Shown: positions 1,626 through 64,000 of the stretch, piece by piece | How positions within the stretch are numbered: position 1 is the stretch's first letter | How the letters are laid out: the number at the start of each line of letters is the position of its first letter | From: an uncultured Gemmatimonadales bacterium | GTDB taxonomy: Bacteria; Gemmatimonadota; Gemmatimonadetes; Longimicrobiales; RSA9 | Direction: 5' to 3' | Length of the DNA: 64,000 bases | Assembly (NCBI GenBank): GCA_963783305.1 | Contig: CAWAMW010000007.1 | Coordinates: 64,001-128,000 of the forward strand | Translations under genes and position numbers: made by a program | The notes under the pieces: model-generated | The model's input: only the letters and a program-made list of their open reading frames with translations | Told to the model about the DNA's origin: nothing | Database searches by the model: none

Positions 1626-4253
1626 ATGGAACTTCGGGAAAGCGTGGTCCGGTGGGGGTGGATCCTCCCATTGGTGGCGCTCGCGCTGCTGCTCGCGGGC
1701 ACGATCTACCTGGATCGGCAGAGTCATCAGCAGCTGGAGGCGCGGCGGTCCGCCGCATCGGCGGAGGCGGAGCGGGAGGCGGCGGCACTCGCGGAGGGGA
1801 TCGCCTCGGAGGTGTCCGGACGCGTGGGCGCCCTGGCAGCCGCCAAGCTCCAGTTCACCCAGGTCGAGGACTCGCTCTCGCAGCAGACGTTCGTCGAGGC
1901 CGTGGACAGCGTCATCGGACGGCTCCCCGGCCTGATGGCGGTGTCCATCGTCTATCCCAGCGGCTGGATCGTCTCGTCCCGCATGTCCGCGCTGGACCCG
2001 CGGAGCGATCCGCTCGCGCTCCCGGACCTGAAGGCCGCGTATGCGCGGGCGGCCGCGACCCGGCAGCCCGCCGCTACACCGGTACTCCCGCTCGGCGGAT
2101 ACCGTCGCGTAGTGCTGTTCGACCCCGTTGCACCCTCCGACACCGTCCCCATCCAGGCCATGCTCATGGCCGAGATCGAGCCGCTCCCCATCCTTCGCGC
2201 CGCCCTCGAGCAGGGCGGCAAGAAGCTGAGGCCGGCCTTCTACGACCTGTTCGACCCGTCGGGCCGCCGCATTACCACCGTTCCGGCCCCGGAGGGTTGG
2301 CCGTCCGTGCGCCACGACGTGAAGGTGGCGGACACCGAATGGAGCCTGTACGTGGCGCATCAGCCGGTGAGCGAGCGCTCCTTCCTCGCCACCATCACCG
2401 CGATCCGGGTGGCGGGCGGGCTCCTGGCGGTCGCGTTCTCCCTGCTCCTGCTCCTGCTCTGGCGGATGGTGACCGCCCAGCACGGCGAGATCCGGCTCCG
2501 GCGCGTGGCGGAGACGCAGGCGCGGGAGGTGAGCGATCAGCTTCGGGCCGCACAGGAGGCGTCGCTCCGTCTGTCCGGCGCCATGGACCCGGACCGTGTC
2601 ATCGAGGAGTTCCTCGGCGCGGTGGGGGTTGAGATCGGCGCGGACGTGGGGCGGATCTACGCCTTCGAGGAGAACGGGGACGTGCTCGTGGGCCGACGGC
2701 TGATTGTGCTGGACCCGGAGCTGTGGGAGGGCGCGGGGCCCAGCGAGCACGGCTTTCGGGATGTGCGCGTCCCCCTGGGCCTGATGCCCCACCTGGCTGA
2801 GCCCGTGGCAACGGGAGAGCCCTACCTGGCGGGCCCCGAAGCCAACATTACGCCGGGGTCGGAAGGTCGACCTTCCGCCAGCTCGACCCTGGTCGTGCCC
2901 CTGGCGCTGGGCGGGAACCTGGTGGGGCTCGCGGTCTGGGAGCGGCACCGGCCGGACGGTCGCTTCGAAGACCGCGCCATTCCGTTCGCGCAGGGCGTTG
3001 CCGCGCACGCCGCCGCCGCGCTCCAGGCCGCAGAGCTCATGGATGGCGTACGGCAGGCGCGCGAGAGGGCGCACAAGGAGGCCGTTCGGCTCGCCACCGT
3101 GCTGGACCAGATGGGCGATGGCGTCATCCTCTTCGATCAGGAGGGATATCCCGAGCGCGTGAACGCCGCCGCCGAGGCACTCCTCGGCCCCGCACTCTCC
3201 GATACGCACCTCGCCGACTGGCCGGGCGTGTTTCGGATCTCGAATACCGCTTCGGCCGGGTTCCCGCCGCTGCACGCCCTCGAGGGTCGGGCGGTAGAGG
3301 ACGTCCGGCTCACCATGCGGCACCACGGGCTCGAGCGGTACCTCGCCGTTTCCGCCGCGCCGATCCGTGGAGCGGAAGACTCCGTCCGCGGTGCCGCGCT
3401 CGTGTTCCGGGACGTCACCGCCGAGCACGAGTACGCGGAGATGCTGCGGTACACCAATCAGGAGCTGCGACAGCAGGCGACGTTGCTCGAGCGCACGAAC
3501 GATGAGCTACGCGCGGCCACCGCCGCCAAGGACCAGTTTCTCGCCATGATGAGCCACGAGCTGCGCACCCCCATCAACGCCATCATCGGCTACAGCGAGC
3601 TTCTGGCACTGGGGATCCATGGTGAGCTGGGCGAGCAGCAGCAGTGGATGCTCGGACGCGTACGCGACACGTCAGGACACCTTCTCGGGCTCATCGAGGA
3701 CGTGCTCGACCTGGCCAAGATCGGCGCGGGCCGCATCGACATGGAGATCCGCGAGGTCGAGCTCGCCCCGGTGCTGGAGCGGGCCAGCGCCCAGGTGCTC
3801 CCGCTCGCCGCGGAGAAGGGGCTCAGGATCGAACGCGCCGGCGCGGCCGGGATCCGCGTCATGGCCGACGAGATGCGGCTCCTCCAGATCCTGATCAATC
3901 TCGCCTCCAACGCCGTGAAGTTCACCGAGGAGGGCGGGGTCACCGTCCGGATCCGGGAATCCGACTACCACGCGTTGATCATCGTGGAGGACACCGGCCC
4001 GGGGATTCCACCCGACCAGCTGGAGCGCGTCTTCGACGAGTTCCATCAGGTGGACTCGGGACTCGCCAGGAAGGCCGGCGGGACCGGACTCGGCCTCACC
4101 ATCTCCCGGCGTCTCGCTCGCCTCATGGGCGGCGACCTCACTGTCGAGAGCACGGTCGGTTCGGGCACCGCATTCACCGCCCACGTGCCCCTCGTCCACA
4201 GACGCCCGACGGTCGTTGATGAACCAGCGGCACGGGGCAGGGACGCGGCCTAA
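1626..4253 (+). CDS. Membrane sensor histidine kinase (periplasmic sensor, GAF, PAS, HisKA, HATPase)
   Basis: Two TM segments, SHELRTP H-box, NLASNAVKFT N-box, DTGPGI, GGTGLGL; no receiver domain. Confidence 0.92.
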   Translation: MELRESVVRWGWILPLVALALLLAGTIYLDRQSHQQLEARRSAASAEAEREAAALAEGIASEVSGRVGALAAAKLQFTQVEDSLSQQTFVEAVDSVIGRLPGLMAVSIVYPSGWIVSSRMSALDPRSDPLALPDLKAAYARAAATRQPAATPVLPLGGYRRVVLFDPVAPSDTVPIQAMLMAEIEPLPILRAALEQGGKKLRPAFYDLFDPSGRRITTVPAPEGWPSVRHDVKVADTEWSLYVAHQPVSERSFLATITAIRVAGGLLAVAFSLLLLLLWRMVTAQHGEIRLRRVAETQAREVSDQLRAAQEASLRLSGAMDPDRVIEEFLGAVGVEIGADVGRIYAFEENGDVLVGRRLIVLDPELWEGAGPSEHGFRDVRVPLGLMPHLAEPVATGEPYLAGPEANITPGSEGRPSASSTLVVPLALGGNLVGLAVWERHRPDGRFEDRAIPFAQGVAAHAAAALQAAELMDGVRQARERAHKEAVRLATVLDQMGDGVILFDQEGYPERVNAAAEALLGPALSDTHLADWPGVFRISNTASAGFPPLHALEGRAVEDVRLTMRHHGLERYLAVSAAPIRGAEDSVRGAALVFRDVTAEHEYAEMLRYTNQELRQQATLLERTNDELRAATAAKDQFLAMMSHELRTPINAIIGYSELLALGIHGELGEQQQWMLGRVRDTSGHLLGLIEDVLDLAKIGAGRIDMEIREVELAPVLERASAQVLPLAAEKGLRIERAGAAGIRVMADEMRLLQILINLASNAVKFTEEGGVTVRIRESDYHALIIVEDTGPGIPPDQLERVFDEFHQVDSGLARKAGGTGLGLTISRRLARLMGGDLTVESTVGSGTAFTAHVPLVHRRPTVVDEPAARGRDAA

Positions 4254-40406: not shown

Positions 40407-40618
40407 TCCTGCCTCCTTGCCTTGATGCCGGCATCTCCATGACCCGGTCATAGCAGGGGCAGGAGCCGTTCCGCGGACGTGCCTTGCGGCCATACACGTT
40501 GCGGCACAACGCGTCCAAGCGGTATAACGGGGGCGAGGGACCCATCCGAAGGTTCCGCGAATGTCCCCCATAGTGGACATTTTCGGCCCGGCCGGAGAGG
40601 ACACCGGGAAGGAGCGGC

Positions 40619-41341
40619 ATGTACGAGGCGGTGGTTGCAGTGGTGGCGGTGCTGGCGGGAGCCGTGGCTTCCGTCGCCGGGTTCGGCATCGGGTCGCTGC
40701 TGACGCCGGTGCTCTCCATTGAGCTGGGGACAAAGCTGGCCGTCGCGCTCATCTCCATCCCCCATTTCATCGGAACAGGGCTCCGGCTTTGGCGTCTGCG
40801 GGCGCACGTGAACCGCCGCGTGGTGCTGGGGTTCGGGATCGCGAGCGCCGCGGGCGGTGTGGTCGGTGCGCTCTTCCACGCGCAGGCGGGTAGTCCTCTG
40901 CTTGCGGGCGTGTTCGGGGTTCTGCTCGTCCTGGCGAGCACCACGGAATTGACGGGGCTCGCTCGGCGCGTGGAGCTCGCGGGCGTGGCGGCGTGGCTCG
41001 CCGGTGGTCTGTCCGGCCTGTTCGGCGGGATGGTGGGGAACCAGGGCGGGATCCGGTCGGCGGCGCTGCTGGGATTCCACCTCTCGCGGCATGCGTTTGT
41101 GGCCACCGCTACGGCCATCGCGCTCGCCGTGGATGTCGCCCGCATGCCGGTATACTTCGCCGTGGAGGGCGGGAACATCCTCCGGGAATGGCCGTTACTG
41201 GGGATTGCCGTGGCCGGAGTGGTCGTGGGCACCCTCGCGGGAGAGCGGATCCTGGGTCGGGTCCCGGAACGGATTTTCCGGACCCTGGTGGCGCTGCTGA
41301 TCCTGGCACTGGGTGTCTACATGCTGACCCGCGGATTCTGA
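40619..41341 (+). CDS. TSUP (TauE/SafE) family permease
   Basis: GFGIGSLLTP, GGMVGNQGGIRS, hydrophobic throughout; AAGGAG RBS. Confidence 0.85.
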   Translation: MYEAVVAVVAVLAGAVASVAGFGIGSLLTPVLSIELGTKLAVALISIPHFIGTGLRLWRLRAHVNRRVVLGFGIASAAGGVVGALFHAQAGSPLLAGVFGVLLVLASTTELTGLARRVELAGVAAWLAGGLSGLFGGMVGNQGGIRSAALLGFHLSRHAFVATATAIALAVDVARMPVYFAVEGGNILREWPLLGIAVAGVVVGTLAGERILGRVPERIFRTLVALLILALGVYMLTRGF

Positions 41342-60770: not shown

Positions 60771-61753
60771 TGCGGGGATACTTTAAGGGCGCGCTTCTGC
60801 TGACGACTCTCCTGCTGGCGCCAGTGGCGGCCCCTGCCCAGGAGGCGCTCCTGCTGGTGGTCAACAAGAGCGAGAGCTCTCTCTCGCTGATAGCTCCGGC
60901 GACCGGGGAGGAGGTCGGCCGCGTGAGCACGGCCTTCGCACCGCACGAGGTGGCGGTGTCGCGGGACGGCCGCTGGGCCTACGTGACCGACTACGGTACG
61001 GGGCCGCGCCCCGGCCGCACCGTGACCGTCATCGACGTCCCGGGCCGGCGGGTGGCGCGCACGCTGGACCTGGGTCGTCATACCCGGCCGCATGGCGTCG
61101 CGGTGGCTCCGGATGGAACGCTCTGGATCACGACGGAGGGCACGGCCCACGCGCTCCGCGTGGACCCGGAGACTGGCGCGATCCTGACGGAGGCGGAGAC
61201 GGGCGAGCGGGTCACGCACATGGTGGTGGTCTCCACCTCGGCGAATCGGCTGTACACCGCCAACATCGGGAGTGGCACCGTCACGGCCCTGGACGGGGAG
61301 ACGGGCGCCGTGATGGCGCAGATCGAGACGGGAGCGGGGACCGAGGGTCTGGCGCTGTCGCCGGACGGCTGGAAGGTGTACGCGAGCAACCGTGAAGCAG
61401 GGACGTTGAGCGAGATCGATGTCGAGACGAACCAAGTCGCCCGGACCCTCGACGTGGGGGCGTTCCCTATCCGGGTCGAGGTGCTCCCGGACGGCCGGCG
61501 AGCGCTGGTCTCGAATGCGCAGGCGGACGAGCTGGCGGTGGTGGATCTCGAGAAGTGGCGCGTGGAGCGCAGGATCCCGGTGGGCGCAGTGCCGGTCGGC
61601 ATACAGATCGCGCCGGACGGGAAGAGGGCGTACGTAGCGAACACACAGGCGGACAGGGTGAGCGTTGTGGATCTGACGAGCTGGCAAGTGGTGGGAAGCA
61701 TCGTTGCAGGACGGGAGCCGGACGGAATGGCCTGGGTCGAGGGGGCGCAGTGA
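60770..61753 (+). CDS. Secreted YncE/YVTN beta-propeller protein
   Basis: Signal peptide; repeated SPDG..YV.N....VSVID blades. Confidence 0.85.
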   Translation: MRGYFKGALLLTTLLLAPVAAPAQEALLLVVNKSESSLSLIAPATGEEVGRVSTAFAPHEVAVSRDGRWAYVTDYGTGPRPGRTVTVIDVPGRRVARTLDLGRHTRPHGVAVAPDGTLWITTEGTAHALRVDPETGAILTEAETGERVTHMVVVSTSANRLYTANIGSGTVTALDGETGAVMAQIETGAGTEGLALSPDGWKVYASNREAGTLSEIDVETNQVARTLDVGAFPIRVEVLPDGRRALVSNAQADELAVVDLEKWRVERRIPVGAVPVGIQIAPDGKRAYVANTQADRVSVVDLTSWQVVGSIVAGREPDGMAWVEGAQ

Positions 61754-63210
61754 GCGAGGTACGGGTTCGATTCGCACCGTCGCCCACGGGCTATCTCCAT
61801 GTGGGTGGCGCCCGCACAGCGCTCTTCAACTGGCTGTACGCGCGGCGGCACGGCGGCACCTTCATCCTGCGGATCGAGGACACGGACCGTGAGCGCTCCA
61901 GCGACGCAATGGTGCAGGCGATCCTGGACGGGATGTCCTGGCTGGGCATGGCGGCGGACGAGGGGCCGGTGCACCAGGCGGACGGGTTGAAACGGCACCG
62001 TCGCGACGCCCTCCGTCTGCTCGAGGATGGGAAGGCCTATCGCTGCTTCTGTACACCGGAAGAGCTGGACACCAAGCGCACGGACGCGGAGGCGGGAGGG
62101 GGCGGATATCGCTACGACCGCCACTGTTCGCTCCATGTCCCGCCCGCGGAGGCGGAGCAGAGGGCGGCGGCGGGCGAGCCGTTCACCGTCCGGTTCAGGG
62201 TGCCGGAGGGGGAGACCGCATGGGACGACATCGTCCACGACCGAACGCGCTTCGACAACGCCGACATCGAGGACTTCATCATCCTCCGAACGGACGGCAC
62301 CCCCATCTACAACCTGGCGGTGGTCAGCGACGACCGGGAGATGCGGGTCAGCCACGTCATCCGGGGCGATGACCACCTGTCGAACACGCCCAAGCAGATC
62401 ATGCTGTACGAGGCGCTGGGGTGGGAAACGCCCGCCTTCGCCCACCTGCCCATGATCCTGGGGAGCGATGGCAGGCGGCTGAGCAAGCGCCACGGCGCCA
62501 CCGCGGTCGGACAGTACCGGGAGGAAGGGATCCTGTCCGGAGCCATGGTCAACTTCCTGGCGCTCCTCGGCTGGTCGCCCGGGGACGATACGGAGGTGAT
62601 GGACCTGCCGGAGCTGGTGGACCGCTTCGAGCTGGAGCGGGTGAACAAGAAGAGCGCCGTGTTCGATACCGAGAAGCTGGAATGGCTGAACGGTCAGCAT
62701 CTGAATCGGATGGCCCCCGAGTCGCTGGAGCCGCTGGTGACGGACCTGCTGGTTCGTCGGGGAGCCGCGAGCGCCGAGGCACTGGTCACTGACCGTGAGC
62801 GTTACCTTCGTGTGATCTCGCTGCTCCGCGACAGGGCGCGTACCGTGGACGACATCGCGGACCGCGCCAACCCCTACCTGACCGATCAGATCGAGTACGA
62901 CCCGGCGGCCGTCGAGAAGCACTGGTCGAAAAAGCCCGAGGAAGTGGTGGAGCGGCTGCGCAGCATGCGGGAGGCGTACGGAGAAGTCGAGCGTTGGGAG
63001 GAGGGGCTGCTGGAGGAGGTGCTTCGCGCCCTGGCGGTGGAACTGGATGTGGGAGCGGGGAAGCTGATCCACCCGCTCCGCGTCGCGGTGACCGGCCAGG
63101 CGGTGTCCCCCGGCATTTTCGAGGTGCTGGTGGCCATGGGGAGGGAGCGGACGCTGGCCCGCCTGGATGCCGCCATCGGTCGCATTCAGACCGAGACTCA
63201 CGTCGGTTGA
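61750..63210 (+). CDS. gltX: Glutamate-tRNA ligase
   Basis: RFAPSPTGYLHVGG, RIEDTD, IRGDDH, LSKR; GTGA overlap start. Confidence 0.96.
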   Translation: MSEVRVRFAPSPTGYLHVGGARTALFNWLYARRHGGTFILRIEDTDRERSSDAMVQAILDGMSWLGMAADEGPVHQADGLKRHRRDALRLLEDGKAYRCFCTPEELDTKRTDAEAGGGGYRYDRHCSLHVPPAEAEQRAAAGEPFTVRFRVPEGETAWDDIVHDRTRFDNADIEDFIILRTDGTPIYNLAVVSDDREMRVSHVIRGDDHLSNTPKQIMLYEALGWETPAFAHLPMILGSDGRRLSKRHGATAVGQYREEGILSGAMVNFLALLGWSPGDDTEVMDLPELVDRFELERVNKKSAVFDTEKLEWLNGQHLNRMAPESLEPLVTDLLVRRGAASAEALVTDRERYLRVISLLRDRARTVDDIADRANPYLTDQIEYDPAAVEKHWSKKPEEVVERLRSMREAYGEVERWEEGLLEEVLRALAVELDVGAGKLIHPLRVAVTGQAVSPGIFEVLVAMGRERTLARLDAAIGRIQTETHVG

Positions 63211-63235
63211 CACGGCACCGGGCCGCCTTTACCCT
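63207..63235 (+). promoter_or_regulatory. Sigma70 promoter for tRNA-Gln and lexA-like gene
   Basis: TTGACA-N17-TACCCT overlapping the gltX stop codon. Confidence 0.7.
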
Positions 63236-63273
63236 GCCACGTGTGCGGGTCGCTGTTCGGCCGCTCGCCCGAA

Positions 63274-63346
63274 TGCCCCTTGGTGTAACTGGCAACACGT
63301 CTGATTCTGGATCAGAAGAGTCCTGGTTCGAGCCCAGGAGGGGCAA
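63274..63346 (+). tRNA. tRNA-Gln(CTG); CCA not encoded
   Basis: Acceptor TGCCCCT/AGGGGCA, anticodon stem TCTGA/TCAGA with CTG at 63307-63309, GGTTCGAGCC T-arm. Confidence 0.96.
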
Positions 63347-63348
63347 CT

Positions 63349-64000
63349 ATGCCTAATCCGCTGACGGACCTCGAACGGGATGTCCTCGACTACCTCGTCG
63401 ATTACGTCCGTACGAACACCTACCAGCCCTCGATCCGTGAGATTGGGGGCGAGTTCGGCATCAAGAGCACCAAGACCGTCTCGGAGGTGCTCCAGTCGCT
63501 GGCCGACAAGGGCTGGATCGAACGCAACTCCTCGCGCTCGCGCGGTGTTCGCCTCCTGGGCCTCGAACTGGGCGCCGACGTGGTGTCCGTCCCGCACATC
63601 GACGTCCACCTGAGCGATCCATCCCTCGACGAGCCCATCGACAGCCTCACGCTGGATCGGCGGATCGCAGGGTCGGCCGGCAGCTTCTTCGTGAGCATGG
63701 TCGGCGACGCGATGCGCGAGGAGGGGATCCGGGATGGCGACCTGGTGCTCGTGGAGCCGCTCCCGGAGGTGGCCCTCATCGACGGCGACCTGGTGCTCTG
63801 CAGGCTGGACGGAGAGGCCACCGTCCGGCGGCTGCGTCGACAGGACGGCCGCGTCCTGCTCGAGGCCGGCCGTCTCGCGCAGACGTCCGCGATGGTCGAC
63901 CCGCGGGGGTCCAACCACGTCCTCGGGCGCGTAGCCGCGGTGGTCCGGAGACTCCGCACCGACCGGCCGATGGGGCAGATGGCCACCGAGCCGCTGGACG
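63349..64000 (+). CDS. LexA-like repressor with degenerate S24 domain (runs off the window; not in ORF track)
   Basis: MPNPLTDLERDVLDYL..YQPSIREIG..FGIKS..TV..L..LADKGWIER...SRG; GDAM, GIRDGDLVLV, EATVRR. Confidence 0.88.
   Translation, partial: MPNPLTDLERDVLDYLVDYVRTNTYQPSIREIGGEFGIKSTKTVSEVLQSLADKGWIERNSSRSRGVRLLGLELGADVVSVPHIDVHLSDPSLDEPIDSLTLDRRIAGSAGSFFVSMVGDAMREEGIRDGDLVLVEPLPEVALIDGDLVLCRLDGEATVRRLRRQDGRVLLEAGRLAQTSAMVDPRGSNHVLGRVAAVVRRLRTDRPMGQMATEPLD

Follow-up and report, generated by a model that had tools for sequence, protein, structure and literature searches.

Bacterial tRNA genes and ribosome-binding sites are usually treated as separate elements, and the ribosome site of tufB is separate from the tRNA. 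The thrU-tyrU-glyT-thrT-tufB operon is a bacterial tRNA-mRNA co-transcript in which autoregulation of tufB acts through the start region of the coding sequence and Rho (PMC6134099, PMC6735719). In mitochondrial tRNA punctuation, excision of the tRNA by RNase P and RNase Z sets the 5' end of the mRNA, and mitochondrial mRNAs are leaderless by design. A further group comprises the leaders that sequester the Shine-Dalgarno sequence (SD), namely translational riboswitches, RNA thermometers, translational T-boxes and the tRNA-like thrS operator.

The junction between a tRNA-Gln gene and a lexA-like gene near the end of the window (the whole 64,000 nt stretch of DNA analysed, from an uncultured Gemmatimonadales bacterium, genome G000) resembles an SD-sequestering leader in its working and a tufB-type operon in its layout, and it comes close to mitochondrial punctuation, but on the features tested it belongs to none of these classes. 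As in the tufB-type operon, a tRNA and a protein gene lie under one promoter, which here is a predicted one; unlike in that operon, the SD and the tRNA stems are the same bases, and the tRNA and an SD-led mRNA are mutually exclusive. The resemblance to mitochondrial punctuation lies in a tRNA that is flush with the start codon and in the availability of RNase Z, but the genome here is SD-led and not reduced, and a perfect SD stands at normal spacing in the tRNA end. In common with the sequestering leaders, the SD is paired in a helix and output depends on folding (here predicted), whereas what sequesters the SD here is an intact tRNA that has another task to fulfil, and neither a ligand nor a conserved alternative fold was found. 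In the literature searched, which was available in part and lay mostly outside the subscription journals, we found neither an account of an SD that lies within a tRNA nor any mention of this LexA-like paralogue.

All features of the locus are on the plus strand. The glutamate-tRNA ligase gene gltX (61750–63210; TIGR00464 above cut-off) ends in a TGA stop that lies inside the -35 box of a predicted sigma-70 promoter, TTGACA-17 nt-TACCCT (63207–63235), which would serve both the tRNA and the lexA-like gene. The 38 nt between the -10 box and the tRNA (63236–63273), corresponding to a predicted 5' leader of approximately 32 nt, can be folded as a single hairpin. The tRNA-Gln(CTG) gene occupies 63274–63346, with A63346 as the discriminator and the CCA not encoded; the ARAGORN call spans 63274–63347, the match to Rfam RF00005 scores 61.6 bits, and the cloverleaf, the anticodon and the conserved stems are all present. 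No Rfam match besides the tRNA was found at the locus. The 2 nt junction CT (C63347 and T63348) is followed directly by the ATG at 63349–63351, so that the CCA position reads CTA and its final A is the A of the ATG, and an RNase Z cut behind the discriminator would leave these two bases as the entire leader. AGGAGG (63336–63341), 7 nt 5' of the ATG, straddles the 3' strands of the T-stem (63334–63338) and the acceptor stem (63339–63345) of the predicted cloverleaf, with AGG in each, and is the likely SD of the lexA-like gene, judging from its sequence, its duplex with the 16S 3' end and its retention in a relic locus described below. The gene itself encodes 223 aa, runs from 63349 through the end of the window at 64000 to G000:C7:128020, 20 nt outside it, and is followed by tadA. 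This geometry had been described in the initial annotation (tRNA end, CTA, position of AGGAGG, ATG at 63349), and the sequence agrees with it base for base. The ATG at 63349 is also the true start, as had been assumed, since the 73 orthologues collected begin at the homologous Met or a few codons away and the next in-frame start codon, codon 47, is inside the DNA-binding domain. Elsewhere in the window, ARAGORN reported a 90 nt tRNA-Ala(GGC) with a poor T-arm (40613–40702), which is probably a false call.

The protein shares its domain order with the LexA repressor (TIGR00498, PF01726 + PF00717), a winged-helix domain (PF01726, E 4.8e-17) preceding an S24-like domain (PF00717, E 1e-13), and its DNA-binding domain is conserved; the TIGR00498 score of 112.6 is just above the cut-off of 110.95. 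Unlike LexA, the paralogue has neither the Ala-Gly site nor the Ser/Lys pair. In G000 the Ala-Gly site is absent and GDAM and ATVRR stand at the catalytic Ser and Lys positions, and over the 73 aligned rows the LexA cleavage columns are unconserved (Ala in 22, Gly in 10, Ser in 29, Lys in 15). All four residues are kept in a canonical lexA on another contig, in front of trp genes (G000:C12:78761-79363). The term repressor, used for the product in the initial annotation, needs qualifying in view of the missing cleavage residues and the separate canonical lexA. In the tight loci, where the tRNA and the ATG are 2 nt apart, dN/dS in the N-terminal DNA-binding domain is approximately 0.1, indicating purifying selection and hence a protein that is made and used. 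The paralogue is a predicted regulator that RecA cannot turn off by cleavage, and the second LexA-like gene found between gltX and tadA across the order is likely mis-annotated as lexA or as the SOS repressor. Just downstream of tadA, a small ORF on the minus strand (L001:3503-4021), which we take to resemble the four-helix '23S rRNA IVS protein' elements, is flanked by 7 nt tandem repeats (approximately 3480–3600) that translate as ALCPVPC.

A single promoter preceding both genes had been proposed, and this is supported by the conservation of the predicted site, with TTGACN-16/18-TANNNT present upstream in 56 of the 73 orthologous loci, including loci that have no tRNA, and by the lack of any -10 hexamer between the promoter and the ATG. 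A strict promoter scan returned 0 sites in the region and missed TTGACA-17-TACCCT. The distance from the -10 box to the tRNA is 38–40 nt in five of the six assessable tight loci (a leader of approximately 32–34 nt) versus 8–18 nt in 19 of 21 loci with a spacer, a comparison that rests on related loci. L068 has the tight junction without a long leader, and leaders of 36–55 nt also occur in three of the eight further tRNA genes of G000 for which a promoter could be detected; the long leader of the tight loci is a lead only. The z-scores of the leader hairpin (+0.6 to -2.1) were unremarkable, and an RNAalifold alignment of six leaders gave 0 consensus pairs. The leader was also considered as an anti-tRNA switch, but pairing between the leader and the D-arm, seen in one G000 fold, was lost when the predicted start was used and was not common to the loci. 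The alternative folds of single sequences were unlike from locus to locus.

The 73 orthologous loci were gathered after removal of one duplicate, with matches in G049, G014, G019, G029 and G035 left out (the G049 spacer, outside the 73, is >100 nt by coordinates). A scan of GTDB proteins revealed nothing new beyond a duplicate of G068 and one unrelated match. The arrangement gltX-promoter-(tRNA)-paralogue-tadA recurs throughout the sampled order. Seven loci are tight, 24 have the tRNA and a spacer of 10–256 nt, 41 are without a tRNA and one is a relic. Conservation of the tRNA-ATG spacing in relatives, which the initial annotation had named as a check, was borne out by the 2 nt seen in seven of the 73 loci, to which the relic can be added. 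The tight loci are those of G000, G002 and G006 (genus g1), G086 (g46), G047 and G048 (g31) and the metagenome locus L068. The junction is CT in six and TT in one, with CC in the relic, and the start is ATG in all seven. Proteins from the eight tight and relic loci are 55–79 % identical and about half of their synonymous sites have changed, and the N-terminal codons have diverged (MPNP, MQAL, MARS) despite the exact 2 nt gap. The sole change in the stems of the seven tight tRNA copies is a paired U27-A43/C27-G43 swap. No tRNA-Gln(CTG) besides the linked copy was found in G086 (98 % complete), which suggests that the linked tRNA is really matured there. In the relic (L103, in G087), the tRNA body has gone and the final 15 nt are kept, giving CCCAGGAGGGGCAAC-C-ATG behind the same promoter. 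We read it as a relic because chance matches of 13–15 nt are limited to a handful across 401 genomes; it comes from a single genome, and a recent short-homology deletion may account for it. In the closest relative of the gene in the window (L004, G005:C448:150-200), the promoter and tRNA have been lost and the gene lies 7 nt after the gltX stop, which suggests translational coupling of the gene to gltX.

A phylogenetic tree of the LexA-like and TadA proteins, built from 20 of the 73 rows, placed the tight loci and the relic within one 12-member clade (support 100/99) that also contains three members with spacers of 10, 69 and 90 nt, each with a new SD-like word, and one without a tRNA. The eight tight and relic loci are not monophyletic (AU p 1.6e-6, 4–5 changes). 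Either the junction is ancestral and was abandoned some four times, or it originated more than once with an identical gap; ancestry is favoured by the strength of the ribosome sites. A strong SD of their own (duplex of -9 kcal/mol or stronger) was found in 44 of 61 loci outside the clade versus none of the four non-tight members within it (-4.3 to -6.6 kcal/mol), the pattern that would follow from loss of the old site early in the clade's history and later reappearance of weak ones.

To place the SD among its peers, 506 unambiguous starts from a simple gene caller were used as the G000 start set. An SD match of at least 4 nt preceded 290 of the 506 starts versus 133 of 506 control windows, and the gaps between GGAGG and ATG peak at 4–7 nt, with 7 nt at the lexA-like gene. 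Translation in G000 is SD-led. At 10 of 506 starts TANNNT lies 6 nt ahead of the ATG, a minor peak that suggests a few leaderless genes. The duplex of AGGAGG with the genome's own 16S 3' end has an energy of -10.8 kcal/mol, in the top 6 % of the 506 starts. The cost of opening the SD, 7.4–11.6 kcal/mol, falls in the 83rd–97th percentile and is about matched by that duplex. That the fold hides the SD, as initially proposed, was supported in so far as the SD is predicted to be paired in a stable helix and is more buried than average. The net initiation energy (footprint opening plus pairing) is ordinary, in the 24th–71st percentile, because the SD is very strong; tertiary structure and modifications do not enter into these energies, and both would hide the SD more deeply and tip the balance towards a leaderless route. 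By this modelling, capture of the SD would be possible on a nascent or unpacked precursor.

The reading we prefer, with a probability of roughly 0.58, is that the tRNA end has been co-opted as an SD that is read on the unprocessed precursor, and that maturation removes it, making tRNA and protein alternative fates of the transcript. An ancestor of the clade would have lost the spacer along with the GGAGGCGA ribosome site that the gene once had. GGAGGCGA-n-ATG, the site common among the outgroups, is similar to the tRNA end, GGAGGGGCAAC, so that deletion between these short homologies would create the junction. To initiate, the 30S subunit would open the T-stem and the acceptor stem, while a folded precursor would be cut by RNase P and then by RNase Z and the SD would be removed as part of the finished tRNA. 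Protein or tRNA, but not both, would come from each transcript, and the output of the regulator would thus be capped and passively tied to how fast the tRNA folds and matures. The leader of approximately 32 nt may widen the interval available for capture if long 5' extensions slow RNase Z as they do in other organisms; for the Bacillus subtilis enzyme this effect is seen with extensions of at least 33 nt (PMC7479834). The relic supports the SD reading because no tRNA is left to cut there while the SD and its spacing are intact. Against this reading, the 2 nt gap has a constrained element on either side and offers mutation little to hit, so its persistence needs little selection. The non-monophyly of the tight loci and the presence of spaced and tRNA-free members in the clade indicate that the arrangement is dispensable.

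The rival that survives best, which we nevertheless consider improbable, is a bacterial form of tRNA punctuation, in which RNase Z releases a 5'-phosphate CUAUG mRNA that is translated leaderless by 70S ribosomes, the SD is incidental and maturation is the on-switch. A product with a 2 nt leader had been anticipated and is to be expected, as RNase Z was found above cut-off in G000 and in five of five clade genomes tested; RNase J was not found, unlike RNase E/G, RNase PH and GlnRS. The few leaderless genes that appear to be present in G000 would also fit, and a mature-like fold should form ahead of ribosome arrival. The 5'-monophosphate RNA that this route generates is, however, a substrate of RNase E/G, so the product would be exposed to an enzyme that the genome has. 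RNase Z cleaves directly behind the discriminator (PMC7479834), and for leaderless initiation the RNA must have a 5' phosphate and an AUG close to its end (PMC6101614), which fits the ATG at 2 nt in all seven tight loci. Set against this, the relic has kept its SD and spacing without a tRNA that could be cut, and in G000 a conserved flush gene follows a single tRNA, namely the tRNA whose tail carries a 6 nt SD. A role for the gltX product (GluRS) in stabilising pre-tRNA-Gln was also considered and was weakened by the presence of GlnRS.

Somewhat less probable again is a tolerated compaction, in which the gene was joined to the tRNA by a deletion, a low-copy regulator makes do with a trickle of initiation that is SD-independent or relies on breathing, the gap persists because it is tiny, and the SD and maturation matter little. 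Much about the tRNA end is indeed ordinary. The 3' end CCAGGAGGGGCAA, which includes AGGAGG, is constant in 30 of 31 lexA-linked copies whatever the spacer, and an identical second tRNA-Gln(CTG) copy with no gene behind it (G000:C2:114714-114787) also holds AGGAGG, so that this motif is dictated by the tRNA. That copy is housed in an array (G000:C2:112817-115285, L033) of 19 tRNA genes in which CCA is never encoded. Among 48 canonical-looking tRNA genes, CCA is generally unencoded, the usual CT follows the end in 29 and CTA in three. The 216 of 506 starts in G000 that lack an SD match, and the several clade members that have left the arrangement, are likewise consistent with compaction. It accounts less well for an exact 2 nt gap maintained over deep divergence while the N-terminal codons changed, for the relic, or for the new SD-like word in each spaced clade member. 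A hidden promoter inside the tRNA, giving a separate short-leader mRNA with a free SD, is very unlikely, for although a 3' half beginning in the anticodon loop approximately halves the opening cost in two of six tight loci, the strict scan found 0 sites, the only TA between the -10 box and the ATG is in TAACTG and hence there is no TANNNT hexamer there, and the identical tRNA sequence stands in the array without a gene.

An ATG beside a tRNA-Gln end is often a matter of chance, and the geometry by itself proves nothing: at 62 metagenome loci an ATG lies at most 6 nt from the tRNA-Gln end, and only one of these opens a lexA-like gene. The feature that is above chance, judging from the sequences compared, is a junction conserved in front of a real gene. 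When other genes placed directly on the tRNA-Gln end were sought, 46 pattern matches were found in 43 of 401 genomes of the phylum; 30 loci were inspected and none was convincingly flush, and four of the inspected matches were chance matches of 13–15 nt. In one locus (L154, G219:C1, approximately 3052069–3052084, minus strand), the 14 nt word recurs by chance where an ABC ATPase gene ends, immediately ahead of a permease start codon (ATG), and it may act there as an ordinary ribosome site. A tRNA-Leu/tig junction was examined as a second case and rejected, the ATG being kept in none of five relatives. There, the discriminator A of tRNA-Leu(TAG) (G000:C15:223542-223626) and the following TG make an in-frame ATG before tig, probably by chance, and tig likely starts at a TTG/GTG ten codons further on. 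Many copies of tRNA-Gln(CTG) 3' halves, from the anticodon loop on and without the 5' half, were also observed (L035-L096, L152-L181), which suggests that mobile elements in the phylum often integrate at this tRNA gene. Insertion of such an element at a tight locus would part the gene from its promoter but leave the SD.

The initial annotation had suggested that synthesis of the repressor may be coupled to tRNA folding or maturation. A regulatory coupling of this kind was not supported, as the net energy is ordinary, no conserved alternative fold was found and four of the 12 clade members are without the overlap. We consider it improbable that the tRNA is a cis-acting translational switch, in effect a tRNA acting as its own riboswitch, either folded and matured with no protein made or caught by the ribosome, through which the non-cleavable LexA-like regulator and tadA would report the capacity for tRNA folding and maturation.

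One stretch of bases nonetheless appears to do the jobs of both a tRNA end and a ribosome-binding site, and it has been kept across three genera. The locus offers a compact natural test of whether a 30S subunit can win against a nascent structured RNA that is folding and being processed, or whether bacteria translate RNase Z products in the mitochondrial manner, for which the natural series of tight, relic, re-spaced and tRNA-free loci provides ready-made controls. Either outcome would be new for a bacterial genome of ordinary size.
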